From the IMG/VR virus record IMGVR_UViG_3300044551_000092, positions 32,001 through 96,000 of that record: 64,000 nt of DNA. One strand, given 5' to 3'. This stretch comes from a virus. Its lineage: Duplodnaviria; Caudoviricetes. Positions 594-32,732 of this stretch are shown piece after piece (the stretch's first letter is position 1; the number at the start of each line of letters is the position of its first letter). Position numbers and translations under genes: made by a program. Under the pieces are notes generated by a model. That model did no database searches. It was not told the DNA's origin and saw only the letters and a program-made list of their open reading frames with translations.

Positions 594-693
594 TACAAAA
601 GTTTACAAAATTCTTCCCATAGCCAAGCGAACCATGAATATCGATGATAAAGTTCAAGTCCAATCCAAATGAGTAACAAACAGATAAAAATTA

Positions 694-1929: not shown

Positions 1930-1950
1930 TTGTGAAAACCTCCATTAAAT

Positions 1951-9398: not shown

Positions 9399-10328
9399 TT
9401 ATCGTATGGCGAACGGAGTCTGAGTTGCTGCTTGTGCGAATGGATCACTGGTTGTTGGTACTGCCGCCCCACCCTGCTGGGCGAAAGCATTGCTTCCAAA
9501 TACAGAAGCCTTTGCAAAGATACTATTTTGTGTCGTCGGCGGAGTGGATTTAGAAATTTCCTTCCCTGCCGTTTCCTCTACCAGATCAACAATTAGTTTT
9601 TCATAAATCGATGCCAATAAGCGTCGTTCATTGACATGAGAGTTTGTTGTACTGTAATCAATTAAATATACGATTTCTGTATTATTCTGATCCAATGCAA
9701 CTCGGCCGGAAGGCGAATAACTACCGGCAACCTTTGCTGTCATAACCGTACCTTCATTGACTATTGGAATAAAACGTTTTTTGGCAGGAAACATAGTAGC
9801 ATTGAAACGATCAGAAAATGTATCATCTTGCTGATTATAAATTTTATTATAACCAGAAACCACCGGCTGATTATTTTGATTTAGCTTAATATAAAAGTCT
9901 TCTTTGAGCATATGAAACGGAGATGCCTCGTCTGTTATCGTCATAGCTACCTTGATGCTATTTCGTAATTCAAAGACTGTAAACCATAATCCCTTCTCTT
10001 GATATTCTGCGTACTTGTTTTGATTCTGGCGAATTTCTACATTTACGCCCTGTACGAATTGCTGATAAACTTTACCAAGCAAACTATAAATAATACTGAA
10101 CTTTTTTATAATTAACGTGTCAAAATGGCCACTTGCTACGAACACCTTGTTATTGTACTGTGAACGATTGATAAAATATTTCAAGCTCCACCCTGCCGTG
10201 ATTGACTGAGACTTATCAGTGACATACACCGGAAGCTGACCTCGTTCATTGATCTGATTTCCGACCGTTACACTTGTGTTCTTTTCAATAATATCTTTAA
10301 TTCCAGATAAGATACTCATAAAAAACAT
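9399..10328 (-). CDS. hypothetical protein with low-complexity C-terminal tail
   Basis: 309-aa ORF, SD upstream. Confidence 0.75.
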   Translation of the reverse strand: MFFMSILSGIKDIIEKNTSVTVGNQINERGQLPVYVTDKSQSITAGWSLKYFINRSQYNNKVFVASGHFDTLIIKKFSIIYSLLGKVYQQFVQGVNVEIRQNQNKYAEYQEKGLWFTVFELRNSIKVAMTITDEASPFHMLKEDFYIKLNQNNQPVVSGYNKIYNQQDDTFSDRFNATMFPAKKRFIPIVNEGTVMTAKVAGSYSPSGRVALDQNNTEIVYLIDYSTTNSHVNERRLLASIYEKLIVDLVEETAGKEISKSTPPTTQNSIFAKASVFGSNAFAQQGGAAVPTTSDPFAQAATQTPFAIR

Positions 10329-10357
10329 CTCCCTATATGATAGTTATATTTTCATTG

Positions 10358-10374
10358 CATTGGCCGACAGGCCA
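10358..10374 (-). promoter_or_regulatory. conserved mini-hairpin motif copy (candidate phage-RNAP promoter)
   Basis: + strand CAT-TGGCC-GACA-GGCCA, about 30 nt upstream of ATG 10328. Confidence 0.6.
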
Positions 10375-10728
10375 TCAATAGCCTATAGAATGCTCAATAA
10401 TTAAAGTTATCTGATTCGCGATATGATTGAAGTAGCAATAGCCAGAATAAATAATATAGGTAATAACTCTATATTACCTGTTAAAATAAGAAGACCTAAT
10501 ATAAAGACATAAAGCAGAATTCCTCACGACCTAATAAAATAATATTATATATTATATAAAAATATTATTGTATTTCACTAATAAATAATAAATATTAATA
10601 TATAAACATAAAAAATAATCATTTTGCTATTCTTGTTAAGATAAACTTCACAAGACGCAAAATGATAGTTAAACTCCGCCTACGCCTCACCAAGCTTCGG
10701 CGTTTAACGGCGGATTTTTATGTCTATA

Positions 10729-10911
10729 TTAAAGGTTTAATAGAATTGTAACGACAAATACAATACAAAATGGATAGAAAAATAATTCAAATCCACTCAG
10801 TTGATACCACGGATGTTTTGGATTAACTCTATAATTATAGAAATCAGGGTCATCAACGATGATCTTATGTTTCTTATTAAAGTACTTCCATTTATCCCTC
10901 GGAGATTCCAT
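10729..10911 (-). CDS. small membrane protein
   Basis: C-terminal hydrophobic segment; G-rich SD before ATG 10911. Confidence 0.55.
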   Translation of the reverse strand: MESPRDKWKYFNKKHKIIVDDPDFYNYRVNPKHPWYQLSGFELFFYPFCIVFVVTILLNL

Positions 10912-10947
10912 GTCTATGCCCCCTATTATAATTATATTATCGCTTAA

Positions 10948-10964
10948 CATTTGCCGACAGGCAA
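10948..10964 (-). promoter_or_regulatory. conserved mini-hairpin motif copy
   Basis: + strand CAT-TTGCC-GACA-GGCAA. Confidence 0.6.
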
Positions 10965-11395
10965 TTGACTGCTCAATATTATACTATTACAGTTATTTAT
11001 CTTATCGAGTATTCATTGAAATAAATGATAATTATCAATATATAATATTGAACAATCACTAAATGATGGAAATTTATCAGTCAATAATATTAAACAACCT
11101 CTAACTATAATATAAACAATAATATTTAATATTGCGCAATATATAAAATGTCATAAAAAGTGTAATCAATAATATCAAGCAGAAAATAATTGTAAACTTG
11201 TAAGTCAATTATAATATTGGGCAATGAATAAGTTGTAAACTAAGTTATCAGAAACAATATATGACAAAGAATAATTGAACTATATCAATTATAAGATAAT
11301 GTTAAGCAACATATGGCTTGTAGAATGAACAACGCCTTATAATATGTGACAACCTATAATAAAATGCTATAATATAGGACAATGATAGGGGAGGG

Positions 11396-12037
11396 GTGCA
11401 AAAAATGGAGGTACAGTACATCTCAATTGGTGATGCAGCCAAACGTATTGATGTTCCACAGCCAACTTTAAGATTCTGGGTGAATACGCTTGAAGAGTAT
11501 GGCATTCACTTCGTTAAACGGACAGATAGTGGTAAGCGTATCTTTGAGGACACCGATATCGACATTTTCAAATATATGCGGGATATAAGAAAAGAAATCG
11601 GTAAGAGAGCTGATGGCAAAGATACAGCTTACTATATCCGCGATACGGCTAAAAAAATGGGACTTATATTACGTTCGTACGAAGATGCCCCTCAGCCGCA
11701 TCCTCATACGCGTAAATCACGTGAACTCTTATCACAGGAAGATCTCAAAGAGCTATTATCCAGTGATAGGGTAAAAGAGTTCCTGTCTGCCGCTATTGAT
11801 CAACGTGTTAACGAACAGCTTGAACAAAATAAAAATGATATTCTTGAACAAGTCCATAAAGAGAATACTGAAGTTGAACAAAAACTGGATGACATCAAAA
11901 AGCAACTTGAATCTCGAGATCAAAAGCTAACGCAATTTATGCGTGAACTACTCGATCAGAGAAAAAAAGATCAACAACAACGAGAAACAGAAGCTCAAAC
12001 GAAAAAAGGATTTTTCTCAAGACTGTTCGGTGGTTAA
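11396..12037 (+). CDS. MerR-type HTH + coiled coil + amphipathic C-terminus (RacA/TubY/DUF3967-like)
   Basis: SIGDAAKRIDVPQPTLRFW HTH, coiled coil, terminal KKGFFSRLFGG. Confidence 0.8.
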   Translation: MQKMEVQYISIGDAAKRIDVPQPTLRFWVNTLEEYGIHFVKRTDSGKRIFEDTDIDIFKYMRDIRKEIGKRADGKDTAYYIRDTAKKMGLILRSYEDAPQPHPHTRKSRELLSQEDLKELLSSDRVKEFLSAAIDQRVNEQLEQNKNDILEQVHKENTEVEQKLDDIKKQLESRDQKLTQFMRELLDQRKKDQQQRETEAQTKKGFFSRLFGG

Positions 12038-12546
12038 ACGGGCATCTTGACATCATATAAGTCCTCACGGGCTTTCCTAATATAATCAGACGTTTTCTGT
12101 AAAACAAATAATCTATTCAATGGGTTTGGATTTAAATCTTTTTGTCTATAATGAACTTTGTAGGCAAGTGATTTATAACGAAGCAAACCAAAGATTTCCT
12201 GCCAGAGATCGGCATGGCGAAGCAAATGACCTTTAGCCGTAATCCAGCCATCTCGTTCCCATTTATACATGTTTTTGTGCAGACCGGCGGACACCGAAGG
12301 TAAATCGGTATAAATGTGCAAAAAAGAAGGGGACTTTATTGCTTGAAGGCCCTGACGAAGAGCCATAAGCGTCATTCGAGTCACAGTTGCATTCTTTGCA
12401 TATCCACCAATTGTCTTTGTCATTTGCCGATCGTCAAGCATAGAAGAAAGGAGGGCACAATAACCACCATTACCTTCTTTGTCAGCAGAGCCGGAGATCC
12501 ACATATCAATCCGGAGCTTTGTATAAGCAATTCGGCCTGAAGCCAT
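12034..12546 (-). CDS. RNase HI-fold protein lacking catalytic residues
   Basis: WISGS (for xDGS), GGYCALL, TVTRMTL (for TNNRMEL), IYTD, WERDGW, HADLWQ. Confidence 0.8.
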   Translation of the reverse strand: MASGRIAYTKLRIDMWISGSADKEGNGGYCALLSSMLDDRQMTKTIGGYAKNATVTRMTLMALRQGLQAIKSPSFLHIYTDLPSVSAGLHKNMYKWERDGWITAKGHLLRHADLWQEIFGLLRYKSLAYKVHYRQKDLNPNPLNRLFVLQKTSDYIRKAREDLYDVKMPV

Positions 12547-12726
12547 CTAGATCACCTTATTTCTGACGCTTTATCTGATAATAGTTAATGAGTATCATAA
12601 TTAGATAAACTGGCCACAAGAAAATATAGAATAAAGCAAAGAGTAAATTGACTAAAACCTGTTGACGATTCGATGTTCGGAGAAGCTGTAATATAAAAAT
12701 AAAAATGCCAATCAAAACATAGAACA

Positions 12727-13212
12727 TCAAAAGGGTACACTCCTTTGCTCAAACGTTTGTTTAATAATTTGCCTTCGTAATTCCATCAACATTTTGCCCA
12801 ACATATTCATCCCATTATCGTCACGGCCACATCCCCAAAATTCATCATTGATGTTTCCCTCAATTAAAATAGCATCACCCGTATCAAGTAATAACTTTTT
12901 TAAATCAGGATTCTGTATAAATTTAGCCTTAATAGCTTTCTTCATGGCATCTAAGCGTCCCTGAGCGTCCCAGTGCGGCGCAAGACGATATCGACGACTG
13001 TTTCCCATGCGCTTAGCCAAATAGGGCTTAGGAGCCCTTCTAATCGATTCCTGATACTCTGGATTAAAAGGGAACTTCATCGCTTGAAAATAATGCTCGA
13101 CCGAAGGCCAAACCTGACCGTTAATCGTGAAATTCCGCATGTAAAAATTACTCAATTCAAAATACCGCGTGCTATGTGAGAAAAAACGTATTTCTTTAGA
13201 CATCAGATACAC
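12727..13212 (-). CDS. NADAR (YbiA-like) family protein
   Basis: LSNFY, WPSVEHYFQAMKF, AKFIQN, LLDTGDAILIE, DEFWG, GMNMLGKMLMELR. Confidence 0.93.
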   Translation of the reverse strand: MYLMSKEIRFFSHSTRYFELSNFYMRNFTINGQVWPSVEHYFQAMKFPFNPEYQESIRRAPKPYLAKRMGNSRRYRLAPHWDAQGRLDAMKKAIKAKFIQNPDLKKLLLDTGDAILIEGNINDEFWGCGRDDNGMNMLGKMLMELRRQIIKQTFEQRSVPF

Positions 13213-13213
13213 C

Positions 13214-13702
13214 TCAATTTAATTTATAAATAAATACGGTCATTTTAAACTGGTCTGACAATATATCCAGCATGTGTGAGACAGATGGCCAGTTGCCGCC
13301 GGCTAGTCCGCACCCCATGCCGTAAGGGAAACCGATTTTTATCAGCCAACCTCTAAAAATAGAATCTCTATTTGTAGAAATAAAACGAAACATACTTTGT
13401 AATGATGATCTTAACGCTTGATAGTCCGTATATTTTATATCTCGTCCATAGCGATATTGCCCATATAGATTGAAAACTGCACGGTTAGGACAAATAAAAT
13501 AAGAAAACTTTCCTAAACGTTCCTGTGGAGAAAATGGAAAAGTCTTATCTGCTAGATAGGCACCGGGATACATCTTTTTGATCTGACGTGCAAAACCAGC
13601 ACCCATGACTGAAAAACAATTACACTGCTGACCAATAATAGTACAGTCGCTTCTTAACAGATCACCTTGAACAAATCGAAGCAAGTTATCATCTCCAATC
13701 AA
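13214..13702 (-). CDS. Macro domain ADP-ribosylhydrolase
   Basis: QGDLL, QQCNC, MGAGFA, NLYGQ, PYGMGCGLAGGNW. Confidence 0.9.
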   Translation of the reverse strand: MIGDDNLLRFVQGDLLRSDCTIIGQQCNCFSVMGAGFARQIKKMYPGAYLADKTFPFSPQERLGKFSYFICPNRAVFNLYGQYRYGRDIKYTDYQALRSSLQSMFRFISTNRDSIFRGWLIKIGFPYGMGCGLAGGNWPSVSHMLDILSDQFKMTVFIYKLN

Positions 13703-13706
13703 TTAA

Positions 13707-14225
13707 TTAAAATGTCACAACGCGATAGGGAAGGCCAGCTTGTTTAGCAATGTCGATCATATGCTGAGTCCCGGGAGTTCCACCATGTTGCATAAACGCT
13801 ACCAGGGCATCCGCGTGTTCAGCCATATCCACATTTCGCATAAAGCCGGCTTGCTTGCCAAATCGTCCCCAGTCTGCCGGATAACAGTCGATAAAATACC
13901 CTTTCTCCTGAGCGTAACGTTCACCAAGAGTATCGGCACCGCGGGCAGCACCAGACACAACTACAAGACCAATGGGATTTCTATTCCTTAGAAAATAATT
14001 AAGACATCGTTTCAGCTTTACATAATCTTGAAATGTTCGGCTTCCTGCTACTATCACACGAAACACATCATTACGAGATGACAGAACATGATAAGTCACA
14101 AAAGAAATAGATCGACCGTCTTCAGTAGATAATCGATTGAAATCATTGTTATCGTTACAGTATCGAATACACATCAGATTATGAAAACGTGATGTATGAT
14201 CAATATACTGTACGAGATAAGGCAT
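13707..14225 (-). CDS. SLOG family protein (DUF2493/YspA-like) with N-terminal extension
   Basis: VIVAGSRTF, VVSGAARGAD, PADW..GKQAGFMRN, GTQHMI; SD GGAGGTGA before ATG 14225. Confidence 0.88.
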   Translation of the reverse strand: MPYLVQYIDHTSRFHNLMCIRYCNDNNDFNRLSTEDGRSISFVTYHVLSSRNDVFRVIVAGSRTFQDYVKLKRCLNYFLRNRNPIGLVVVSGAARGADTLGERYAQEKGYFIDCYPADWGRFGKQAGFMRNVDMAEHADALVAFMQHGGTPGTQHMIDIAKQAGLPYRVVTF

Positions 14226-14242
14226 ATTTCTCACCTCCGCTA

Positions 14243-14259
14243 CACAAGCCGATAGGCTT
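14243..14259 (-). promoter_or_regulatory. conserved mini-hairpin motif copy
   Basis: + strand CAC-AAGCC-GATA-GGCTT, just upstream of the SD of the SLOG gene. Confidence 0.6.
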
Positions 14260-14311
14260 ATTGTGGAACAAGTGAAATAGGGGAGTGGCCCCATACAAAT
14301 AGCGAGCGCCT

Positions 14312-14587
14312 TCAAGCGTGAATATCAGTGATAACTACAAAAGTATTGTTCCCTTTTTGCTTTTGAACGGTTTTTTTAAGACATTTTTCAACACAGTTAT
14401 ATTCCTTTGCAAAACTTAAATTTGCTGGAATGAGAATCATAGCAAACGAAGGAGTATTGGATATAAATTTACAAAGCCGCTTTTTGACTAAAAAATGCTT
14501 TTTTTCGTATCGAGAAAAACCGATAAAAAAGCGTACACATACTTTTTTTCTAATGGGCGGATGCGCTAAATTCCGTTTGTGTTTCAT
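14312..14587 (-). CDS. hypothetical basic protein
   Basis: ORF with SD GGAGG. Confidence 0.6.
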   Translation of the reverse strand: MKHKRNLAHPPIRKKVCVRFFIGFSRYEKKHFLVKKRLCKFISNTPSFAMILIPANLSFAKEYNCVEKCLKKTVQKQKGNNTFVVITDIHA

Positions 14588-14615
14588 AAAAAATCCTCCG
14601 AATCTATAATTTATC

Positions 14616-14789
14616 TTATTTTTTAGATTCTAAAGCTGCAATTTTTCGCTTTTCTTGAACTATTCGAAGGCGTAATGCCTCCATTTGTCTGTCATGTGCT
14701 CTTTTATCTCTTTTATCCTTAGCATCATCAATAAAAAAAGAAATAATAAAGATTGAAGTAACAACTGCAGCCAAAATATTTAGATACAC
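14616..14789 (-). CDS. small membrane-anchored protein (57 aa)
   Basis: GTG start, MYLNILAAVVTSIFIISFFI then a charged tail; SD AAAGGA; below the ORF-track cutoff. Confidence 0.55.
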   Translation of the reverse strand: MYLNILAAVVTSIFIISFFIDDAKDKRDKRAHDRQMEALRLRIVQEKRKIAALESKK

Positions 14790-14908
14790 AATACCATATC
14801 CTTTCTAAAATATAGAAGATTATTAGAAAAAAATCAAGATAATACAAGATAATATATGAAACACAAAGAAACATAAGAAAATCCCCTTAAAAATAGAAGA
14901 GGAGGCTA

Positions 14909-15433
14909 TTATAACTTTCGATAGGCAAGCATATTAGCCGTTTCTGGATTAAATTGAATATCTTGAAATCCAGAAGCACCATAAAAATCCCGAAGAGCAG
15001 GAATCGGCGTATATTCTACGCAAGCACACTTCATACCGACATATTTTTGAGCATAATAAATAAGCTCAATGGCTTGATCGATAAGTACAGAGCCCTTAAC
15101 AATTCCCTTAAACCGATCACTACGTCCAAGCTGAGCAATTAAATAACACGAGAAATTATCATCCCGGGCACCAACTTTACGGCGAATGCTATTAGATACA
15201 TCATCATGTAAAAAAAATTGCTTAACCATCAAAGTAAAATAACCGATTAATTGATAGTCATTACTAAAACACAAATGAGTTGCAGAAAGATTCTGAGCAT
15301 CTATTGCTAATGCTGACCTTTGGAGAAATCGCTGAACATTCAAATCTTTCTCACACGAAAAAGAAGAAAGGACGTTATTTAGACTCCTTTCTCCTAAAAG
15401 ATTTTTTGCTTTAGTTAATCGTATTACTCTCAT
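14909..15433 (-). CDS. GNAT acetyltransferase, TacT/AtaT-like toxin candidate
   Basis: FSCE..NVQRFL, LIGYFTL, YLIAQLGR, GSVLI, FYGASGF. Confidence 0.75.
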   Translation of the reverse strand: MRVIRLTKAKNLLGERSLNNVLSSFSCEKDLNVQRFLQRSALAIDAQNLSATHLCFSNDYQLIGYFTLMVKQFFLHDDVSNSIRRKVGARDDNFSCYLIAQLGRSDRFKGIVKGSVLIDQAIELIYYAQKYVGMKCACVEYTPIPALRDFYGASGFQDIQFNPETANMLAYRKL

Positions 15434-15717
15434 CGTTTATCCCATGCCTCCCGAAGTTCTTGATAATATTTTTCTTGCTCCTTTTTTGGAAGGAGATCGA
15501 CAAATACAGTATTATCTACCTTCGGATGAGAAGGGGTGGGAGCTTTATCAGCTGCGATTATACGTTCACAAGCTTCCTTATCAAGAACAAATTCATCGTC
15601 ACGCAAAAAGTGTAGGGTAGGATCGTTTAAATCAAGTTCATTATTGTTTTTCACTTTTTCTTCCAATTTTCTCATCTCCTTAGCCTTACTTTCATTCATC
15701 ATATCATGTCCTTTCAC
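15430..15717 (-). CDS. small charged protein, putative antitoxin
   Basis: ATGA overlap directly upstream of the GNAT gene. Confidence 0.5.
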   Translation of the reverse strand: MKGHDMMNESKAKEMRKLEEKVKNNNELDLNDPTLHFLRDDEFVLDKEACERIIAADKAPTPSHPKVDNTVFVDLLPKKEQEKYYQELREAWDKR

Positions 15718-15754
15718 TCTTATCCATAGGATTGACTGAAAGGACGTGATTTAG

Positions 15755-16054
15755 TCAATCAAAGGCGCGTTGATTAACCCGTTTAGCTGCCTCCTCGACA
15801 GAAATCATCTGATTTTCCTGTCGATCAAAAATTTGATTAAATCGTACATCTTCCGGGGTCGTCCATAATAAGACACGGTTCATGGAGCAGAATGTTGAGG
15901 GGCGCGCTGAGTTAACCCAAACTTCTGCCGTATCTTCTTTGCTATTAACGGTAAAATAGATATATCCCTGACTGCTGGTTGCTTCCTTTGCCGCCGCATA
16001 AATATCTTTTACTGTAATCATAAGAACACATCTCCTTTTTTTATATTGTATCAT
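15755..16054 (-). CDS. hypothetical protein
   Basis: ORF; SD before internal MITVK start. Confidence 0.6.
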   Translation of the reverse strand: MIQYKKRRCVLMITVKDIYAAAKEATSSQGYIYFTVNSKEDTAEVWVNSARPSTFCSMNRVLLWTTPEDVRFNQIFDRQENQMISVEEAAKRVNQRAFD

Positions 16055-16450
16055 TTAATTTATATCTGAATACTCACCCGATAAGTATTTTCCGAGCAAC
16101 TTATAAAGCGTAAAAATTATATCAAGATCTTGATCACCCACGCACTGAACTAAAAATTGTTTAATTACGTTGTTTGTTTCATTATCAGGAAGACACCGGA
16201 ATAGTTGTTCTAGATTAGATGGTTTATCATTTAAATCAGCCACTACTTTATAATTTACCACGGCTTTATCAAATTCAGATAACGGAACATAAATCAGTGC
16301 CTTCGAAGGTTTATCAAGCCGTATGCCTGAACCCTGTCGATGACTTAAACTTGCCATCAATGTACATTCAAGGAACAATTTATTATTTTCAATCTCTGCT
16401 GAATTAATGACGCCAGAAAGATTTTTATGATAGTCCTTCATTATACGCAC
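16055..16450 (-). CDS. hypothetical protein, paralogue of 21839..22210
   Basis: Shared IxSA, DKP, PLxxFxKA, KPxxLxxLF, IKxFL motifs. Confidence 0.7.
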   Translation of the reverse strand: MRIMKDYHKNLSGVINSAEIENNKLFLECTLMASLSHRQGSGIRLDKPSKALIYVPLSEFDKAVVNYKVVADLNDKPSNLEQLFRCLPDNETNNVIKQFLVQCVGDQDLDIIFTLYKLLGKYLSGEYSDIN

Positions 16451-16568
16451 CTCTTAACATAGTTGAATTATCCGTGAAAATTACTCATAAATTTATTATA
16501 TCCCAAATAATGAACCAAATCGGAGATATTATCGATCAAATACGTAATACTATACGTAACACTAAGGT

Positions 16569-16763
16569 TTAATTATCATGTTGATGCAGTCCACGAATAA
16601 TACGATTTGCTGTCTGTTCATCGTCTACGTTTTTTGCGATAATAGCCGCCGGATGAGCATTGCCAATCGTGTAGAGTGACAGGATCTCCTTGTCTTGTGA
16701 GTTCCACACATACCAACCCTGCAAATAGCGGTCGGGAACGGGTAGATATTCAACCTTGTTCAT
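16569..16763 (-). CDS. hypothetical protein
   Basis: ORF with SD. Confidence 0.55.
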   Translation of the reverse strand: MNKVEYLPVPDRYLQGWYVWNSQDKEILSLYTIGNAHPAAIIAKNVDDEQTANRIIRGLHQHDN

Positions 16764-16965
16764 TTTGTTGCACCTTCTTCATTAAAAATGGAGTAAGAAG
16801 CGATCGATTTTTAACCACGCGAATGAATTGACCCTTCACATAAGCCAGGGCACCTGAAAGGGCAACATACGAAAATCCATTATAGGCAACAATTAAGTCA
16901 AAACCATTGAAGGAATTGCGCCGTACGAAAAAGTGCGCCTTCTTCGGATCGATATATTGAGCCAT
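16750..16965 (-). CDS. hypothetical protein (MAQYIDPKK...)
   Basis: SD AGGAGG before ATG 16965. Confidence 0.6.
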   Translation of the reverse strand: MAQYIDPKKAHFFVRRNSFNGFDLIVAYNGFSYVALSGALAYVKGQFIRVVKNRSLLTPFLMKKVQQNEQG

Positions 16966-16969
16966 GAAA

Positions 16970-17425
16970 CTAAACCTCCTTAATTTTATCCATTGACAAA
17001 TTACAAAGTTCATCGGTACGTTCATTTCATCGGATACCGGCATGTCCTGGAACGCGCTGAACCGAAATGTCTTTAAAACGTACAATCAGTTTCTTAACCT
17101 GAATCCACAAATCACGATTTTTTACAGGCTTTTTATTAGACGTCCGCCAACCGTTATTCAGCCAATGATCAAGACTTCCTGTATTAATATTGTGGATTAC
17201 ATACGAACTGTCACAGAAAACAATAACTGGGATATCATATCGTTTGAGTTCTGATAAACCGTTTATGAGAGCTGTCAATTCCATACGATTATTGGTCGTA
17301 TTCATTTCCGAATGAAAAAATTCCTTATGATATTTGCCAAAACACAAGACGACAGCCCACGCTCCGATATTATTGGACTGTCCATTTCCCCGGCAGCCAC
17401 CGTCACAATACAGATGAATATTCAT
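16970..17425 (-). pseudogene. rnhA: RNase HI with an in-frame TGA at codon 133 (nonsense allele or readthrough)
   Basis: YCDGG, TTNNRMEL, CDSSY, PVKNRDLW, GHAGIR-TGA-NERTDELCN... continues in frame to TAG at 16970. Confidence 0.85.
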
Positions 17426-17427
17426 TT

Positions 17428-17664
17428 TTACATCATCCTTTTAACATCATCTTTGATTTTGAATAGGTCTTTTCTGAGCTTAATTGTAATTCCTATAACC
17501 ATTAAAAAAAGCACGACTAGGAAAAGAACTAATAGTGCCGTATTTACCCCCCATATGTGGCCGAGAATATCAACGGCCAGATACAAAACGAGCAAGCTGC
17601 CAACCAGAATTGAAGCAAAAATGAAGAAAGCAGTAAGTGACAATATATTCCTCTCGTGTTTCAT
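17428..17664 (-). CDS. small two-TM membrane protein
   Basis: Two hydrophobic segments; likely start MKHERN at 17664. Confidence 0.65.
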   Translation of the reverse strand: MKHERNILSLTAFFIFASILVGSLLVLYLAVDILGHIWGVNTALLVLFLVVLFLMVIGITIKLRKDLFKIKDDVKRMM

Positions 17665-17710
17665 TAGAAAATCTTCTTTCATTTGATTTTTAGAAATCAT
17701 AAATTCAAAA

Positions 17711-17727
17711 CATAAGCCGATAGGCAT
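17711..17727 (-). promoter_or_regulatory. conserved mini-hairpin motif copy
   Basis: + strand CAT-AAGCC-GATA-GGCAT. Confidence 0.55.
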
Positions 17728-18234
17728 TTAAAATTGCTTACAATATATGAGAAAAATGTTCGCCTTTTCTGGACGTTTTTGCTGAAAAAGGCGAACGTTA
17801 TGTGAACATTAAGTGAACAAATCTCAGAAATGTAGAAAAACAGCGTTTTTACCGGTAAGTATTTTAATAGTAGGGAGACCTTTTTAAGAGAAGAAAAACT
17901 TAACAGTAAAGTTTCTCCAAAACGTGCAGAAAACTTTACCAGTTAGATTTCGGCGTTTTCTAGTTCAGAAAAAGGTTTGAAAAAAACAGAAAGAAGGTCT
18001 GTACAGAATGGATAAAAAATCCTATAAAAATAAAAGCACTGAGTTAGAAAGTATTTCCTCTAACACAGTATCGATTCTGGTCTATGTAGATAGGAAACAC
18101 TTGGAAACAACAAGTATTCTCTGATAGGCCAGAAAAAGAAGAAAAAATTACCGCTCAAAATAGAAAGAAGAAATTCCTATTTTAACCAATATGATCTCCC
18201 GTACAGAAGGGACAGTAGAACTCTCAACGGTAAC

Positions 18235-18498
18235 TTGAAATCTTACAAATTCCCTAGAAAAATGAAATTTCAGGTCACCGTTAAGAGTTCTGACTTATGG
18301 GGAGTGGACTGTCCTTTTATAAAGTACAGTAAACATTGGAAAAAGATGAAAAAATTTAAGCATTGGAGAGACTGGTGGGAAGTTATATATCACAAAAATC
18401 AGAAAACTTGTTTAAAAATGCTTCACAACGGAAAATTCCGCTTGGCGCCACTGATCACACGTTTAAATCTCTTATCAATCGTCAATGCTTTAAAATAA
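18235..18498 (+). CDS. hypothetical basic protein
   Basis: ORF followed by a plus-strand terminator. Confidence 0.35.
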   Translation: MKSYKFPRKMKFQVTVKSSDLWGVDCPFIKYSKHWKKMKKFKHWRDWWEVIYHKNQKTCLKMLHNGKFRLAPLITRLNLLSIVNALK

Positions 18499-18521
18499 AA
18501 CTAAGCATTCTAGCTGGTATT

Positions 18522-18543
18522 GCAGCCGCAAGGCTGTTTTTTT
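18522..18543 (+). terminator. intrinsic terminator
   Basis: GCAGCC-GCAA-GGCTGT followed by a T run. Confidence 0.7.
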
Positions 18544-18546
18544 ATG

Positions 18547-18924
18547 CTAATCCCAGACAGGGTAGTGCTTTTCAATTATTCGAAAAATCTTTTCAAGCGT
18601 ATAACAAGGAGCTTGTGCTTTCCATTCTAGTGGAGAATTATATAACAATTTTAATGTAAAAGACCAATATTGCTTATCTTGCTTATCTTTTTGATAAGTA
18701 ATTATTCCTTGATATTGAAAAAATGACCAATGCAAATAGATATAAGGGTTTGGATAATCATTTTCCTGGCTAGAAAAGCTAGACGAAAAAAAGCCAGGCC
18801 AATTGGAAACAACATAATTCATGACATCAAAAATTTGTTCAGCAGACATGTTTGTTTCAAATTTCATTTGAGCAAGATCAAAATGATACTTATTTCGTCG
18901 TATATATTCTTCTATTAACTCCAT
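18547..18924 (-). CDS. hypothetical protein, paralogue of 19841..20182
   Basis: MELIEEYIRR N-terminus, YWxF and TLxxI motifs shared. Confidence 0.65.
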   Translation of the reverse strand: MELIEEYIRRNKYHFDLAQMKFETNMSAEQIFDVMNYVVSNWPGFFSSSFSSQENDYPNPYIYLHWSFFQYQGIITYQKDKQDKQYWSFTLKLLYNSPLEWKAQAPCYTLEKIFRIIEKHYPVWD

Positions 18925-18930
18925 AAAATA

Positions 18931-19200
18931 TCACCTGACTATATTTTTTGGACGTGGGCTTTTATCGATATTTCTACGAAGAAAAAGATCAGAACCTTCA
19001 TTACCACAGATCCAGTAATAAACCTTTGAGTTCGGCCGGATTCGAAAAGACTTATCTCCAAAATAATTATCATAAAGGAACCAGGCTGTTTGAAAAAATA
19101 TAGTTTTATACTTCATGTTAAAGATACACCAGTTCCTCAAATACCCACCCGTAAAGCTATCCAGGCTATGAAGCACATCAACTGTATAATTACTCCTCAT
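18931..19200 (-). CDS. hypothetical protein
   Basis: ORF with ATGA overlap. Confidence 0.5.
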   Translation of the reverse strand: MRSNYTVDVLHSLDSFTGGYLRNWCIFNMKYKTIFFQTAWFLYDNYFGDKSFRIRPNSKVYYWICGNEGSDLFLRRNIDKSPRPKNIVR

Positions 19201-19859
19201 TCAAAATACCTCCCTATAGTGGGACAATCATGTATCCCATACCATGATTCATAATGGTTCTGGACCCGCTCAAAACGCTCATCATCAATCTCTTGAAAGT
19301 GGTCAAAAAAGTCGTTGTCGGCGGTACATCCACCACAACCTTCACCTATAAAAAGAACAATCATATCTGGATTAACCAGACTTGCTTCTTTGAGAACTCG
19401 ATAAGCTGTGTTGTCCATAAACGGCCAGCTCATTACACAAACATCATAGTCACTGCCAAACGTGCGTACAGCTGCAACAGCGTCCATCTTCCGTACTTCA
19501 GTGACTGGATTCTTCCATAAAACAAACCGAGACTTCTTCGACCACGAAAAGTCATCGGTGGCAATCACATCAACGCCACATTGCCGTAAGGCGGCAGAGA
19601 GCCAACCTCGACCGGCCATGACCTCAAGGACCTTACGTTTGCCAATCCACTGAACCAGTGGACGGACCCAGCGCCAAGAGACATAAGCAAACATGCCATT
19701 TCGAATCGCTATTTCTCTTTCTTTAGTATCATGAATTACAGCTTCTAAAATTTTGTCTTCTTTATTTCCCACAGAAAAACTTTGTTTCATACGTGTTGGT
19801 ATACTATTAGGTATTTTAAGCATAAGAAAACCTCCTCGTATTAAACATAGTACACGCAA
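19197..19859 (-). CDS. class I SAM-dependent methyltransferase-like protein (start probably MLKIPN)
   Basis: VLEVMAGRGWLS, VIATD, DAV, MSWP, IGE..GGCTAD. Confidence 0.7.
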   Translation of the reverse strand: MRVLCLIRGGFLMLKIPNSIPTRMKQSFSVGNKEDKILEAVIHDTKEREIAIRNGMFAYVSWRWVRPLVQWIGKRKVLEVMAGRGWLSAALRQCGVDVIATDDFSWSKKSRFVLWKNPVTEVRKMDAVAAVRTFGSDYDVCVMSWPFMDNTAYRVLKEASLVNPDMIVLFIGEGCGGCTADNDFFDHFQEIDDERFERVQNHYESWYGIHDCPTIGRYFE

Positions 19860-20182
19860 TAAAAATCGAGAAAATTAAGCATCTCAGCAAGTGTTGAAAA
19901 TTCCTGTGTCCGCGGTACTGCAAAACCTTCTAAAAACACAGAGAAATGCCAATACAGCGGACCTTTCAAAAAAGAAACTGAGCCGGAATAGACCATGCGA
20001 CGGAATCCAATGACGCGAAAAATTTGCGACTGATTACGGATAAGTTTTATATCGTTTGTTTCAAAATACGCATTCTGAAGCGCATAATGACAACAGTCTA
20101 CCACCTGGTCCAGTGGGACGGATAAATCAAATTGAGCTTTACCAATATCAAACCGTTTGATGTATTCACTAATCAATTCCAT
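19841..20182 (-). CDS. hypothetical protein (MELISEYIKR)
   Basis: ORF with SD GAGGAG. Confidence 0.65.
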   Translation of the reverse strand: MELISEYIKRFDIGKAQFDLSVPLDQVVDCCHYALQNAYFETNDIKLIRNQSQIFRVIGFRRMVYSGSVSFLKGPLYWHFSVFLEGFAVPRTQEFSTLAEMLNFLDFYCVYYV

Positions 20183-20475
20183 TATGACGACTCCTCAACA
20201 ACCAAAACGTTGAAGATATTAACCGGTCGGCCGGTACGTGTTGTTTCACCAAAAAAGAAAATGCGGTATTGTCCATTGGCACGGTGAATAACTATTTCAT
20301 ATTTTACTTTGAATAGATTATCTTTTTCCTGTTTAACCCGGCAAACCTCTGGAAGATCGGCGGAGAAACCGGGCAGCGCATCTAAAACCTTATGCTGTAA
20401 AACATCTACATCTAGAATTGAATCCAAATGCAGATCTTCTTTACTAATTTTACTTGTTATTTCAACAACACCCAT
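20182..20475 (-). CDS. hypothetical protein
   Basis: ORF in operon. Confidence 0.6.
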   Translation of the reverse strand: MGVVEITSKISKEDLHLDSILDVDVLQHKVLDALPGFSADLPEVCRVKQEKDNLFKVKYEIVIHRANGQYRIFFFGETTRTGRPVNIFNVLVVEESS

Positions 20476-20569
20476 TAAATTATCACTTCAATTCAATAGA
20501 AATTAATATAGCATGTGAGAGCATCGGACTCTCAAGCCCGCCTTTACGGGACATGCTTGATATTCTCAA

Positions 20570-20950
20570 TTAATACACAGTAATAAAAAATTGATTCGAA
20601 TCACCATCATCACCCTCTAATTGGACAACAATCATCTTAGGATCATAATACGTATCCTTATTCACACAATAAATCATTGCACCAAAATAGACTTTTTTAG
20701 CCATTTTATTCTCATCAATTTCGTATTCATATGTATCTAATTTAACGATGCGGCCGACAGCAAACTGCTCGTCATTTTCATCTTCGGATTTAAGATTTAT
20801 TTCAAATGCTTCTTCAATAAACTTTTTAATATCTTCTACTGTGCTATCGATTGTCATATTTAGACCAACCTCTGGAAAACCGCTATTCCCAAACTCTTGT
20901 AAAACTCTCACTAGCAAGGCACGGTCAGTAACTAAACGTGCAAGCATCAC
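20570..20950 (-). CDS. hypothetical acidic protein
   Basis: ORF. Confidence 0.6.
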   Translation of the reverse strand: MMLARLVTDRALLVRVLQEFGNSGFPEVGLNMTIDSTVEDIKKFIEEAFEINLKSEDENDEQFAVGRIVKLDTYEYEIDENKMAKKVYFGAMIYCVNKDTYYDPKMIVVQLEGDDGDSNQFFITVY

Positions 20951-21117
20951 TCATCACATCCCATCATTATGATAAAATCAAATTAATGCTTACTATAAAT
21001 TTTATCACATGAAAATGACAAGCTGTCATGTAATATAGAGAAATATCCCACCGGTCTTAGAGATTATTGATATGTCTTCAATATTATTTCAACCTCCAGT
21101 TATTTAACTATCCTTAT

Positions 21118-21134
21118 CATCAGCCGACAGGCGG
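21118..21134 (-). promoter_or_regulatory. conserved mini-hairpin motif copy
   Basis: + strand CAT-CAGCC-GACA-GGCGG, upstream of an SD GGAGG on the minus strand. Confidence 0.55.
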
Positions 21135-21491
21135 CGGGAATCAAAACGAGTGTGAAAATTCAGACATATACTCAATAAACCCTATGGAAAACCATATAAT
21201 ACTAAAACACTAAAAAATACTTTATTATAAATTATATCGGCTGAATAACTATAAATATAAACTAGCCGAAACACAAAGAGAACTATTCTATTGAGCCTAT
21301 TATAGTTATATTAGATCAGCTCTTATAAGGAATACTATAAGCTCTCTTAATGAGTAATTAAGTAAAATCTAATACTGTATCTATTGCAGCTTTAATAACA
21401 GTTAATTAACTTATTATACGGTACTATTGCTGAACACCTAGCAAGCGGGATAAGAGCGCTTATTAGGGAGCACAGCAGAGTAACAAGTAAA

Positions 21492-21613
21492 GCTATAAAA
21501 GGGCGATAATAGTGCTATAAAGAAGCCGTAAAATGACTGAAAAAGTGCTGTAAAAATACTATAAAAGGGATGTGAAAAGACTGTAAAAAGACTGTGAAAA
21601 GGGCTGTAAAAGG
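21492..21613. repeat. tandem array of 11 degenerate 11-bp repeats (RCTRTRAAANN)
   Basis: Units start at 21492, 21503, 21514, 21525, 21536, 21547, 21558, 21569, 21580, 21591, 21603. Confidence 0.85.
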
Positions 21614-21838
21614 GTGCGGGAGGCAGCTTCCTTGCCCGCGAGGGCTGGAAAAGCGGATATCTCATAAATAAATTATAGCTTGTGCCTTACCTCACACTTT
21701 AACCGATATAGCTGATCGCATAATATAGTAAAACGCGAACAATCATAGCTGTTATCGGTGATAATGTTCGGAAAAGTGTTCAGTTTCTCTGAGGGATAAA
21801 CCATAAGAATTCGAAAGAAAATCATCTAAACACGAACG

Positions 21839-22210
21839 TTAACCCTTGCGATCCTTCGGTTCAGAAAGAAAGCCGGACAGCAGGTGAGTCATTATCGTTA
21901 TGATATTGTCTTCTTGGGCCTCTATATTATAGGACAGGAAGGCTTTAATATAGCTGTCGTCTTTCTGTGAATCATCCATGCTTAAAAACAAATCTTTTAA
22001 GGTATGGGGCTTGCTTTTATAATGCATGGTATATCGGATAGAGGCTTTTCTAAAGTAGCGCAAGGGGATCTTAAAAGACAGATCGACAGGTTTATCAGTC
22101 TGCGCCTCGGCCCCGTGAGTACTTTCTATTTTAAACGAGCCTGAAACATGCATTAAAAAGGTATCATCACGGACTTGAGCAGAAAGAATCTTTCCCTCAA
22201 TAAATAGCAC
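21839..22210 (-). CDS. hypothetical protein, paralogue of 16055..16450
   Basis: Collinear motif similarity. Confidence 0.7.
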   Translation of the reverse strand: MLFIEGKILSAQVRDDTFLMHVSGSFKIESTHGAEAQTDKPVDLSFKIPLRYFRKASIRYTMHYKSKPHTLKDLFLSMDDSQKDDSYIKAFLSYNIEAQEDNIITIMTHLLSGFLSEPKDRKG

Positions 22211-22275
22211 GCAATCACTTCCTGATTATGAGATACCCTTATTATAGATAAACAAAAGGAAAAGATATACTTTAA

Positions 22276-22292
22276 TATCCGCCGGCAGGCGG
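22276..22292 (-). promoter_or_regulatory. conserved mini-hairpin motif copy
   Basis: + strand TAT-CCGCC-GGCA-GGCGG. Confidence 0.55.
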
Positions 22293-22392
22293 GGGACGGA
22301 CGACAGGTAAAGCAGATAATCTAGCCATAAAGCAACCGCTCCTTAAAGTAGAAAAAGTAGAATTGGGTAAAGCACCACGTAGCCGAAGGCGA

Positions 22393-25300
22393 TCAATACT
22401 TGACGATCTGACTAATATTTAGATTAAGGGTATGTCTGCCGGCAGCTAATTCAGCAGAAACAACAACAAAAGAATACTTGTCGTGCCCCATTAGCAGATG
22501 ATTTGTCTTCTTACTGTTATATAGATAGCCTACGGGGATATTGTGAATAAATACGAGATAGTGATCTCCACGAGCCAGAAGATAGCCGCCGTGTTTGGCT
22601 AGTCCAGTAGCTACCTGTTCACGGGTGTAGTTGATCTTACTCGGCACGCACATGCCCAGAGATACATTGGTTGTCACTATCTGGCCGCGCAGTATCTGAT
22701 CCTGTTCTGGCTTGTGTTCCATATAGGCTAGCGTCTGAATGAACTGATCTGCACAAACGGTCCAGGGGAAGGAGAGACTGCTATCTTGTTTCCGGCCGGC
22801 ATAGGTAATGTAATATGCCACAAAACCTAAATCTCTGGCCGGGTACTTCAAAGCAAGATTAGCCATGACTTCTTGAGCTTGGCCGCGCAGAACGGACAAT
22901 TCATCTTTCCGGTGTTGCTCCAGACGATCCAGCTCGTTGCGTGTTGTCGAGTAAGACATGCCGGAAGAAATGACTCTCTGCTTCTCAGTTTCCTCAGCTT
23001 GAAAGATAGACCGAGCCGCCGCACCATAACGTGCTTTGACTTTTCCGACAATTCTCTCCAAGGCCAAGAAGTCATCCGGCTTCAAATCAAAGGAAGAAGT
23101 GATAGGCGCTAAAAGAGAGTATTTTGCGGCATTTGCTTCAAATTCAGCGAAACGTTCATCTAAATATTCCGTTTCAAACTGTTGAATAAAAGCCATGACG
23201 CGAGACAGAACCCCATTCCGATTGATGCCATCTTTCTCCTGTTCAGGATCTTGACGGAGAGCCAACCAATCCGGTTTCATCCAGACACGAAATGAGCTGC
23301 CTTTCTTCTCTTTCGACAATTCTTTTGGCGGGTTCTTCATGAAGGAGAGAGTGTCTTTCATGGCTTCCTCATAAAAACCGCCATGCTTAGCACGATCGAT
23401 TTCCCAGCCTTGCACCAGCCGAAGCAGATCAATGTCATAGCAATACTCGTCGATCTTTTGCAGGTTATGCTGTACAGCGGTCTTATCGATATCAGTCCGC
23501 TGAATAGTCCGTTTCATGCCACGCACGGAATCGGCTAAGATAGTGGCCATGTTAGTGGAGGTGGCAATCTTATTTGGTGCCAGTGTGCGTATCACGTAGT
23601 CTTTGCCTAACTCGTGCAGCTCTTTCTTAAACACAGAAGACTTGGCTTGCTGGGCGGTAAACGTCAGCCTGTAGCTATCTTGATGTTCGACAAGACCCGC
23701 CGGTAACTGGTACACACCAGCCAGTTCCATACTGTATGGGCAGCCGTCGCCTAGATCAATTACGTGGCCTTCTTTATCACGCTTAAAGCTCATATCAAGC
23801 AGAGGCAGGGCGTTATAGCGGCCAACTGCAGCGACAAAACGCGGCTCAGTAATCGTCATGCATTCATCGCCATCATTATCCGCGCCGCCCATGCCAAAAG
23901 TGCAGAAGTCATGCACGCTCATCACACAGAGATTCTGAAAGGCACCGTGCTTGACCGCTTGCATATACAGACCATTGCCATACACCTTGACATATTGGAG
24001 TTCGCCTTCCGTAATGGCCGGATTACGGCCGAGCACAACATACTTGCCGAATAAATCGCTTTTCTTCTCACTGTTTGACAGTAAGAAAACCTCGTTAGCT
24101 TTAATATCAGACGGACGCTCCCGAATCACCAGATCATCACTCTTGTACTCTGTGCCGCACGCTAGTACAGCATACGGGTCCTGAATCATATAGCGATAGT
24201 GGCCTTCAACGGGAATGCTGCCGGTCTTCCAGTTAAACAATTTGCGTTTTAACAGGTCTACCGCGTACTTTTTCATGTAGACATCGTTAAAAGCCAGTGG
24301 ACTAGCAGAAAGGAATCTCGCAAACGTAGACACCATGCTTCGGTCGGACAGAAAATCCTGTTCTTCATCAGACAGATCATCAAAAGACCTGTCCAACCCT
24401 ATCAGCTTCTTCATGGCATCCGTATTATACAGAGCTTTATAGACATTGTTCAGATGAGGTTTCACGATCTCAATCAGGTCTTCTGCGGTTACAGAAGAAG
24501 TCTGGATAAATTGATAGGGGATCTCCGTATACTTCTTTTCCTGTTTCAACTTTTTGTTAAAGATGGCTACCCGGAACTCAATCTTGAAGTCTGGATGACT
24601 GGCCAGCAACTGGCGGAAGTCACCCTTGCAACTACCCCGGAAAGCCACGATGTCTGCCTCTGGATAGTATTTCTTCAGTCCAGGTATAAAGACAGCCAAG
24701 CCCTTAACAAATGGCGTAATGCGGACCTGTACTGCGTCTACGAACTTCCCAAACTCGGCGGCCAGCTCATAGTATACTTTCTCATCAAAGAACACCGCAC
24801 CATCGGCGGCCGTCATCTTCACTGGATATTTTGCTGCATCGAAGACTTCAAAACGATGCGTGTCTGTGTTAAACTTTCTGTAGTGACCTTTTTTGATCAC
24901 TACCTGCCGATCGTTGGCAATCACTAAATTGTGAGTGCCACCGGTCAACATGTATTCATTCGGAATTGGAAGCACCTCGACTACAGCACTGCCAATCCGA
25001 ATAACTTTTGACGCCACGGTGTTAGTGCCTGCTAACCCGGGGCGTTTTAACATTTTTGTGACATCTAATTCATAAGTTTTGCCTTTCTTCTTAGCAAAAG
25101 CGAGGGCGGGGAATCCCAACAATTCCAGCGCATCTTCCGGTTTCATGAAGTCTTCCAGAATAAAGATGCCTTGCATCAATCTCGCTTGGCTCGGTGTCTG
25201 AAACAAGAAGACTGCATGCTTTATTTGGCCATGCTCATCCTTGATCCAGAAACCGTCACGAACAACATCCTCCGCCAACTGAATCTTCTCTAAAACTTCA

Positions 25301-25848
25301 GTACGATATTTTACGCTCAATCCGGCAAGCTGATCTTCATCAGGATGCTCCACAAACAGATTAACGTAAAGGATCTCGTGCATTTTAAGTAAATGACGCA
25401 CAAAAGGCTTTCTGCCGGCAGGATAATACTTGATGTCCTGCAAATCGGCGGAAGCAAAAGCCTCAGACAAGGCTGACTCACTGACCACCGAATAGTTATA
25501 CATATCGGTATAGTCAATTAGGCTTATGATACGGCCGTCATTTAGACGTTTCATCTTTTCAATTTCAGCTGTTCCGACATGTACAGACTTTCTAGTGGGT
25601 GGATAGATGCGGTCCGCTAACTTGTGACTTGCCACGAACGCCTTAAAATAACGCAACTGGTTTGTCGGCACGCCGACCGATGCCGGATTCTTCAAAATCT
25701 CCAGCACACTCTGACCAGACGCGATGCCCATCACAACGCGGGTATAGTTCTTCGTCTTCACGCCTAGACCTTCTGAATCCGCCATTGCCGCAAGAATGTC
25801 ACCCGTCGTCATCAGATAGTCGTTTTCCTTTAGAAATGCACGATTCAT
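22393..25848 (-). CDS. single-subunit two-barrel RNA polymerase, YonO / eukaryotic-RdRP homologue
   Basis: TPSQAR, ADGAVF, QVRITPFVKG, GRNP, catalytic GGADNDGD, IDRAKHG in the expected order. Confidence 0.88.
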   Translation of the reverse strand: MNRAFLKENDYLMTTGDILAAMADSEGLGVKTKNYTRVVMGIASGQSVLEILKNPASVGVPTNQLRYFKAFVASHKLADRIYPPTRKSVHVGTAEIEKMKRLNDGRIISLIDYTDMYNYSVVSESALSEAFASADLQDIKYYPAGRKPFVRHLLKMHEILYVNLFVEHPDEDQLAGLSVKYRTEVLEKIQLAEDVVRDGFWIKDEHGQIKHAVFLFQTPSQARLMQGIFILEDFMKPEDALELLGFPALAFAKKKGKTYELDVTKMLKRPGLAGTNTVASKVIRIGSAVVEVLPIPNEYMLTGGTHNLVIANDRQVVIKKGHYRKFNTDTHRFEVFDAAKYPVKMTAADGAVFFDEKVYYELAAEFGKFVDAVQVRITPFVKGLAVFIPGLKKYYPEADIVAFRGSCKGDFRQLLASHPDFKIEFRVAIFNKKLKQEKKYTEIPYQFIQTSSVTAEDLIEIVKPHLNNVYKALYNTDAMKKLIGLDRSFDDLSDEEQDFLSDRSMVSTFARFLSASPLAFNDVYMKKYAVDLLKRKLFNWKTGSIPVEGHYRYMIQDPYAVLACGTEYKSDDLVIRERPSDIKANEVFLLSNSEKKSDLFGKYVVLGRNPAITEGELQYVKVYGNGLYMQAVKHGAFQNLCVMSVHDFCTFGMGGADNDGDECMTITEPRFVAAVGRYNALPLLDMSFKRDKEGHVIDLGDGCPYSMELAGVYQLPAGLVEHQDSYRLTFTAQQAKSSVFKKELHELGKDYVIRTLAPNKIATSTNMATILADSVRGMKRTIQRTDIDKTAVQHNLQKIDEYCYDIDLLRLVQGWEIDRAKHGGFYEEAMKDTLSFMKNPPKELSKEKKGSSFRVWMKPDWLALRQDPEQEKDGINRNGVLSRVMAFIQQFETEYLDERFAEFEANAAKYSLLAPITSSFDLKPDDFLALERIVGKVKARYGAAARSIFQAEETEKQRVISSGMSYSTTRNELDRLEQHRKDELSVLRGQAQEVMANLALKYPARDLGFVAYYITYAGRKQDSSLSFPWTVCADQFIQTLAYMEHKPEQDQILRGQIVTTNVSLGMCVPSKINYTREQVATGLAKHGGYLLARGDHYLVFIHNIPVGYLYNSKKTNHLLMGHDKYSFVVVSAELAAGRHTLNLNISQIVKY

Positions 25849-32646: not shown

Positions 32647-32732
32647 GCCGGTGTGATGGAATGGGTAGACATACTGGACTTAAAATCCAGGGGCAGGTTT
32701 CTGCCGTGCGGGTTCGACTCCCGCCACCGGTA
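32647..32732 (+). tRNA. tRNA-Leu(TAA)
   Basis: Cloverleaf; CTGGA-CT-TAA-AA-TCCAG; long variable arm; GGTTCGACTCC. Confidence 0.93.

Follow-up and report, generated by a model that had tools for sequence, protein, structure and literature searches.

The early promoters P1-P3 of coliphage N4 are hairpins that are read by the virion RNA polymerase (RNAP) (PMC4496689). Thermus phage P23-45 encodes both a tail-fused virion RNAP and a non-virion two-barrel RNAP with distinct promoter motifs, that of the non-virion enzyme being a GC-rich motif that serves early and middle genes (PMC10770324). For YonO of SPbeta, the start site was mapped and the promoter was left undefined, and how YonO-type polymerases find promoters was left open when the enzyme was characterised (PMC5467207). 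Bacillus phage 0305phi8-36 carries a YonO-like enzyme according to a review; Hardies, Thomas and Serwer described in 2007 a 21-bp 'phage-specific promoter candidate' that occurs 14 times in one arm of its genome, proposed gp99 as the reader and noted the absence of sigma factors, with no mention of a hairpin or of covariation (PMC2147016). At the level of DNA structure, mini-hairpins of the types GC-GNNA-GC and GC-GNA-GC are stable (PMC13037366). Here we analyse a window of 64,000 nucleotides (nt) that comprises bases 32001-96000 of the 206,290-bp virus record IMGVR_UViG_3300044551_000092 (hereafter G000), a Bacillus-type phage, in which a short hairpin motif with a single orientation recurs in the gene arm downstream of a gene for a YonO-like RNAP. 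With moderate confidence, we favour the explanation that these hairpins are promoters of the YonO-like non-virion RNAP and are read partly by shape, as in coliphage N4.

Distribution and orientation of the hairpin motif

Read in the sense of the genes, the core of the motif is GCC-TRYC-GGC, and its form on the template (+) strand is GCC-GRYA-GGC. In the window, we identified seven core copies on the + strand (starting at 964, 10363, 10953, 14248, 17716, 21123 and 22281) and none on the - strand, compared to an expectation of 0.16, and none of 100 shuffles reached seven copies. The whole 206-kb record contains 10 forward copies and no reverse copy. In G000, genes point leftward at ~5-60 kb and at 180-206 kb and rightward in between (60-180 kb), and all 10 copies fall within the leftward (minus-strand) gene arm; the whole-record scan found no core copy upstream of the RNAP operon and none in the 120-kb rightward virion arm. 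In the upstream regions of the leftward arm, the most enriched 8-9-mers are those of the hairpin motif. A looser scan added an 11th copy at genome position 30287 (ACC-TGTC-GGT), where the outermost fixed pair is changed from G:C to A:T in a compensatory manner and the other features are kept. Three further copies of a relaxed pattern, GCCG-NN-AGGC (9705, 18525 and 19583), were dropped, two being intragenic with other loops and that at 18525 being part of a + strand terminator.

Except for the copy at 964, the window copies precede a plausible start codon by 15-70 nt, or, at 21123, the next long open reading frame (ORF) by ~170 nt. In the tightest cases, in both G000 and 0305phi8-36, the Shine-Dalgarno sequence (SD) begins only 8-12 nt past the stem, so that any start site would lie at or just after the hairpin. 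A sequence-only reading of the window had listed the seven core positions in one orientation, put the chance expectation well under one, placed one core inside thiF and seen no copy before the RNAP gene or the virion genes, all of which agrees with the scans. Its spacing of five copies shortly ahead of likely starts fits the distances given above, and the YAY-NN prefix that it included in the motif (RTR after the stem in gene sense) is present in 7 of the 10 copies and absent from the rest. The features to which the argument refers are as follows.

22393..25848, minus strand: gene for the YonO-like non-virion RNAP (RNA-dependent RNA polymerase (RdRP) family, two-barrel), 1151 amino acids, identified by its PF05183 match
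22271..22292, minus strand: hairpin copy 1, sense loop TGCC, 5-bp stem followed by a spacer to a purine (motif scan)
21113..21134, minus strand: hairpin copy 2, sense loop TGTC, first outer pair mismatched (motif scan)
17749..17796, minus strand: hairpin of 12 bp that resembles a terminator and carries a T-run, located ~30 nt upstream of copy 3
17706..17727, minus strand: hairpin copy 3, sense loop TATC, downstream of the hairpin at 17749-17796 (motif scan)
14238..14259, minus strand: hairpin copy 4, sense loop TATC, 22 nt ahead of the ATG of a SLOG/YAcAr gene
10943..10964, minus strand: hairpin copy 5, sense loop TGTC, 41 nt ahead of the ATG at 10911
10353..10374, minus strand: hairpin copy 6, sense loop TGTC, 43 nt ahead of the ATG at 10319, at the downstream end of a 400-nt gap
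954..975, minus strand: core copy within a ThiF-family gene (694-1560, minus strand), with one outer pair only; a doubtful member
9399..22210, minus strand: mostly small genes of unknown function behind the six intergenic copies

Covariation of the stem

Covariation was assessed in an alignment of 25 GCC-type sites drawn from five genomes. The two pairs immediately beyond the fixed GCC/GGC show Watson-Crick pairing in 20 and 17 of the 25 sites, respectively, each with four pair types (37 Watson-Crick pairs and no G-U pair), and a third outer pair is not kept. The covariation score is 0.29, compared to 0.09 in shuffles (none of 500 reached 0.29) and 0.06-0.12 when the partner position was slid. 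Among the exact G000 copies, the outer stem pairs in 8 of 10, with 17716 and 21123 mismatched at the first outer pair; the sequence-only reading had seen the outer stem change and still pair in four copies.

The record of 0305phi8-36 contains no GCCT-NN-CGGC. K-mer enrichment in this phage instead yielded a different hairpin, NNN-CGT-TCGC-ACG-N'N'N', at places that match those in G000. CGT-TCGC-ACG occurs 19 times in gene sense and never on the opposite strand; two of these occurrences are the same terminal-repeat site, which leaves 18 distinct copies. Watson-Crick pairing holds at the three flanking positions in 16, 18 and 18 of the 18 copies, respectively, with three or four pair types (52 Watson-Crick pairs and no G-U pair), and the covariation score is 0.64 vs. 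0.15 in shuffles (0 of 500 reached 0.64). In both lineages, the stem consists of three invariant pairs plus two (G000) or three (0305phi8-36) co-varying pairs, giving stems of 5 and 6 bp, respectively, with a 4-nt loop and predicted DNA folding energies of -4 to -7.6 kcal/mol. The flanks are arbitrary in sequence and complementary at each site, a pattern that a dimeric duplex-binding protein could not select, which indicates that a hairpin forms in some single strand.

No sequence is conserved upstream of the stem; conservation downstream of it covers a spacer and a purine whose distance is fixed. The purine, at alignment column 28, lies 8 nt past the stem, is separated from the loop centre by 14.5 nt, and is G in 8 of the 9 aligned G000 copies; in 0305phi8-36, an invariant G followed by T occupies the same column. 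The template-strand loop is G-R-Y-A closed by C:G in G000, and GCGA closed by T:A in 0305phi8-36, such that the G..A loop ends and the distance from the loop to the G are common to both lineages and the stem differs.

Could the pairing molecule be RNA, with the motif acting as a hairpin of the 5'-untranslated region or between cistrons, that is, as a processing site, a stabiliser or a binding site for a translational regulator? The position between genes, 8-60 nt ahead of the SD, would fit such an element, and covariation proves intramolecular pairing but leaves the molecule undefined. We nevertheless consider an RNA element unlikely. There is no G-U pair among the 89 co-varying pairs of the GCC-type and 0305phi8-36 sites, and the sense loops (U-R-Y-C and UCGC) are not stable RNA tetraloop types, whereas the template form C-GNNA-G fits the stable DNA mini-hairpin type. 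The invariant purine at a fixed distance and the conserved spacer are promoter-like, and the motif is absent from the rightward late arm. Terminator-like hairpins also lie directly upstream of several copies, at distances of 8-32 nt, in G000 (17749-17796 and the genome copy at 202816), in a Paenibacillus replicon described below and in 0305phi8-36. No family in Rfam matched at the hairpins.

The YonO-like RNAP and the motif in its relatives

The RNAP gene matches Pfam family PF05183 (E = 1.1 × 10−10, 41.3 bits vs. a curated cut-off of 23.8), and its product contains the catalytic motif GGAD-N-DGD, which is invariant across 16 homologs. The homologs are 33-45% identical to it and are encoded on contigs of ~190-230 kb, including a Virgibacillus salexigens contig and a Paenibacillus rhizovicinus plasmid. 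Several other searches returned no relatives: neither the region nor either polymerase had a match in a phage collection by megablast or tblastn, a related-locus search with the RNAP protein alone as query found nothing, and searches of PDB sequences and profiles with the RNAP gave no matches.

Downstream of the RNAP gene, the exact motif occurs in gene sense in five related loci (L009, 3 copies; L010, 4; L012, 4; L013, 1; L015, 1), and the RNAPs of these relatives are 35-45% identical to that of G000; two others (L011 and L014) contain loop variants of the motif. The scan of the record and of its relatives, which the sequence-only reading had put forward as a check, finds the motif oriented in G000 and recurring downstream of the RNAP gene elsewhere. 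The whole Paenibacillus replicon contains seven sense copies, all before an SD, with the outer pairs Watson-Crick in 13 of 14 cases and with an extra downstream box, and in the 7.5-Mb assembly that holds this replicon the pattern is at chance level on both strands. The genomes that carry the exact motif all fall into a single clade of the RNAP tree (97/99 support), and a different stem accompanies a more distant RNAP, that of 0305phi8-36: gp99 is 22% identical to the G000 RNAP and is matched by the homolog profile at E = 1.3 × 10−19.

Copies of GCC-TAAC-GGC in L011, L014 and L016, which have GGGA/TCCC flanks and T-runs, were rejected as ordinary terminators. Three other kinds of repeated element were observed in these genomes. 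In several relatives, and not in G000, a second oriented mini-hairpin, CCC-TTC-GGG (template loop GAA), occurs downstream of the RNAP gene (L011 at 13580, 14723 and 18023; L015 at 14974, 15023 and 17998; L014 at 13640 and 13765; L012 at 13762 and 21012), sometimes directly upstream of a GCC-type hairpin. Clustered boxes of the TATTTCATATGA type occupy AT-rich gaps in hairpin-less relatives (L016, 21404-21500; L017, 21649-21705; likewise L014, 19208 and 22345), and may be another promoter class or iterons. In the Paenibacillus replicon (G001:C3, L030-L041), a palindrome of 14-15 nt, of the type GTGTAAT-GC-ATTACA, is enriched upstream of genes throughout the genome and is a candidate repressor operator.

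Which polymerase reads the hairpins

In N4, hairpin promoters are read by a virion RNAP (PMC4496689), and under a strict analogy the hairpins of G000 would be promoters for an injected, tail-fused virion RNAP that reads the entering DNA. Both G000 and its Paenibacillus relative encode a tail-module protein of 2316-2325 amino acids with a DxDGD motif (2316 in G000, where it is a candidate virion RNAP; the full-length Paenibacillus homolog is 29% identical), and the copies head small early-type genes. This assignment appears improbable to us, given the situation in 0305phi8-36, which has 18 hairpins and no detectable homolog of the virion RNAP protein: neither tblastn nor a hidden Markov model (HMM) gave a match to the candidate virion RNAP, its three giant tail proteins contain no DxDGD, and the RNAP-like DxDGD occurs in gp99 only, the one other match being an acidic low-complexity stretch. 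Pfam is uninformative on this point for 0305phi8-36, as it does not recognise the candidate virion RNAP even in G000, and a word-based homolog search returned the query alone. Moreover, the copies extend over more than 60 kb, which is many for a few injected molecules, and the RNAP operon of G000, the expected first target of an injected enzyme, has no copy ahead of it. A hairpin regulon in a phage that seemingly has the YonO-like enzyme alone favours, on sequence-level evidence, this enzyme as the reader; a virion RNAP homolog recognisable by fold is conceivable.

A host RNAP redirected by an unrecognised phage factor was left possible as the reader by Hardies et al. (PMC2147016), and phage sigma-like factors can escape Pfam. 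We regard it as very improbable that such an enzyme uses the motif, because sigma-70 domains (region 2 or 4) were not found in G000, the motif lacks conserved -35/-10-like boxes and sequence-arbitrary pairing has no role in the recognition of duplex DNA by sigma. A search of G000 for the T7-like RNAP family PF00940, run without a positive control, gave no match. The last alternative, that the hairpins are terminators or 3'-end signals of the upstream genes, would fit most 0305phi8-36 copies, which begin 2-11 nt past a stop codon and have a T-rich stretch behind them, but can be all but set aside. The G000 and Paenibacillus copies have no T-run, do not show the intrinsic-terminator pattern and adjoin the downstream start at up to 350 nt from the upstream stop. 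Furthermore, a loop and inner stem that are identical in every copy and a GT that is invariant in the tail are unlike intrinsic terminators.

Promoters of the YonO-like RNAP, as proposed by the sequence-only reading, are therefore the best-supported explanation for a motif that is oriented, intergenic, conserved with covariation, begins right behind the RNAP gene, tracks the RNAP clade and has an equivalent in 0305phi8-36. Several observations weigh against it. Two relatives, L016 and L017, carry the RNAP and have no such hairpin within the 10 kb scanned; the 0305phi8-36 hairpin has the terminator-like look described above, in that it adjoins the upstream stop codon and has a T-rich tail; and one 0305phi8-36 copy lies upstream of gp99 itself. 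Covariation alone is equally compatible with an RNA hairpin, and nearest-neighbour DNA folding energies are the same on both strands. G000 has the candidate virion RNAP as another possible reader. Finally, the only characterised enzyme of this kind, YonO of SPbeta, transcribes late genes from one start (PMC5467207).

Other parts of the earlier proposal fared less evenly. For an N4-like hairpin on the template strand, the evidence comes down to the G..A loop ends lying on that strand and the absence of wobble pairs. The label 'middle regulon' is loose, the genes served being small early-type genes plus replication genes. That the idea was undescribed is half right: a promoter motif for gp99 was proposed in 2007 (PMC2147016), and its hairpin went unnoticed there.

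Genes and other features around the copies

The ORFs behind copies 1 to 6 are 21839-22210, 20570-20950, 17428-17700, 13707-14225, 10729-10911 and 9399-10319, respectively, of which only 13707-14225 could be assigned to a family (YAcAr/SLOG, phrog_289). Copy 1 lies ~100 nt past the RNAP stop codon and 70 nt ahead of the GTG at 22210, and is the least certain of the intergenic copies because a possible 18-codon ORF with a good SD (22278-22334, minus strand) overlaps it, which may be a coincidence. Copy 2 is preceded by a non-coding stretch of ~570 nt. At copy 3, transcripts from upstream probably end at the terminator-like hairpin (17749-17796), so that the next gene would need its own promoter. 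At copy 4, the SD starts 8 nt past the stem, so that any start site would lie within or just after the hairpin. The copy at 964 may be a chance copy or an internal promoter.

The non-coding stretch between copies 1 and 2 contains ~11 tandem units of 11 nt (21492-21614), which may be iterons belonging to an origin or a partition site, and the relatives have a gap of ~1.2 kb at the matching place downstream of the RNAP gene. Within an 819-nt gap of the minus-strand arm, a + strand ORF is followed by a + strand terminator (18522-18537), and this unit (18235-18537) looks like an oppositely oriented insertion. Farther along the window, a cluster of six tRNA genes (32647-34407) includes a ROOL RNA (Rfam RF03087, 110 bits) at 32926-33424. 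At the start of the record, ~28 kb before the window, genome positions 44-3965 contain a minus-strand array that resembles clustered regularly interspaced short palindromic repeats (CRISPR), with a repeat of ~30 nt, spacers of ~36 nt and 58 copies of the 12-nt core of the repeat.

Proposed mechanism and significance

The analysis establishes the motif together with its orientation, placement, covariation and conservation; from these we infer that it acts as a promoter, which polymerase reads it, on which strand, and where transcription starts. The promoter would be a 5-bp hairpin with an invariant inner stem and invariant loop ends, two free but co-varying outer pairs, and a short spacer that ends in the conserved G, ~8 nt past the stem and 14-15 nt from the loop centre, which is a likely candidate for the +1. 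Recognition of the hairpin by the polymerase is probably by shape and would most likely take place on the template strand, where the loop G-N-N-A closed by C:G is predicted to be of the stable DNA mini-hairpin type, as recognised by the N4 virion RNAP. Because the RNAP operon has no copy, its initial expression would have to come from the injected tail-fused RNAP or from the host RNAP, and the newly made YonO-like enzyme would then switch on the downstream early and replication genes.

In its general form, the proposal is that a sigma-less, single-chain, two-barrel RNAP finds its promoters through the shape of a DNA mini-hairpin extruded from the template strand, convergently with N4 in an unrelated fold, and that the stem co-evolves with the enzyme across the ~200-kb phages and phage-plasmids of Bacillota. 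We advance this generalization only tentatively, and consider it somewhat doubtful. Were the shape readout true, hairpin promoters would be known from a second case, and for the first time from the two-barrel fold that cellular RNAPs also have, and the system would provide a compact orthogonal promoter-polymerase pair. Dozens of candidate promoters of clear architecture are available in this family, together with natural compensatory 'mutants' and lineage variants that are paired with diverged polymerases, and the family includes culturable systems, namely 0305phi8-36 on B. thuringiensis and the phage-plasmids in isolates of Paenibacillus rhizovicinus and Virgibacillus salexigens.

Comparison with known systems

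Among the close counterparts are the promoter candidates of 0305phi8-36. They likewise occupy non-coding gaps in an arm that has the gene for the YonO-like RNAP at its head, with the same orientation and the same proposed reader, and form hairpins with the same loop ends at the same distance from the invariant G. They differ in the core (CGT-TCGC-ACG vs. GCC-TRYC-GGC), in the number of variable pairs (three vs. two) and in the T-rich tail; the G000 motif does not match the 0305phi8-36 consensus sequence, and the architecture alone is common. The G000 element is the equivalent of the 2007 candidates in position and architecture, with a lineage-specific stem. What is new here is the hairpin nature, as shown by covariation, the geometry common to diverged lineages, and the putative link to the YonO-like rather than the virion enzyme. 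As a separate observation, five tandem 20-nt boxes lie upstream of gp100-gp99 (L050 12050-12330; 0305phi8-36 212050-212330, minus strand); these match the hairpin motif in the loop, the 3' arm and the downstream box, lack the 5' arm, and may represent a second class of promoter, without a hairpin, from which the RNAP operon is driven.

SPbeta YonO belongs to the same enzyme superfamily, and its start (published as position 2225998 of strain 168), too, falls within a non-coding gap past the polymerase gene; it differs in serving a late operon from a single start. The published YonO primers bracket an interval in the yonN-yonK gap that holds a perfect 6-bp hairpin (L044 10550-10565; record ~60549-60564, minus strand), with the sense loop TTCC and the template loop GGAA, again with G..A ends. 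The relative L053 keeps a hairpin there through compensatory changes, and the SPbeta hairpin is conserved in two close relatives only. This hairpin is only a lead.

The analogy with P23-45 concerns the order of expression: a virion RNAP would express the pre-early genes, including the gene of the non-virion RNAP (PMC10770324). The systems differ in that the word 'hairpin' is absent from the text of the P23-45 paper (PMC10770324) and that we detected no protein sequence similarity. The stable mini-hairpins share with G000 the template core C-GNNA-G flanked by G:C pairs, but they are a motif of physical chemistry, and the 0305phi8-36 loop is closed by T:A.

With the N4 promoters, the element shares a short GC-rich hairpin and fixed stem positions combined with positions that need only pairing; in G000, the sequence would also fit a template loop with 5' G and 3' A closed by C:G, and the candidate +1 would lie at a fixed distance downstream of the hairpin. 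The N4 promoters have a 3-nt loop and a stem of 5-7 bp, are three in number at one genome end and are read by a T7-like single-subunit virion enzyme, whereas the hairpins described here have a 4-nt loop and occur in ~10-18 copies over more than 60 kb, and their candidate reader is a two-barrel YonO-like enzyme, the G000 polymerases being of two-barrel types rather than of the T7-like single-subunit type. The element thus resembles the N4 promoters in most sequence-level features, and would, if it works in this way at all, be an analogue of these promoters and not a member of their family.

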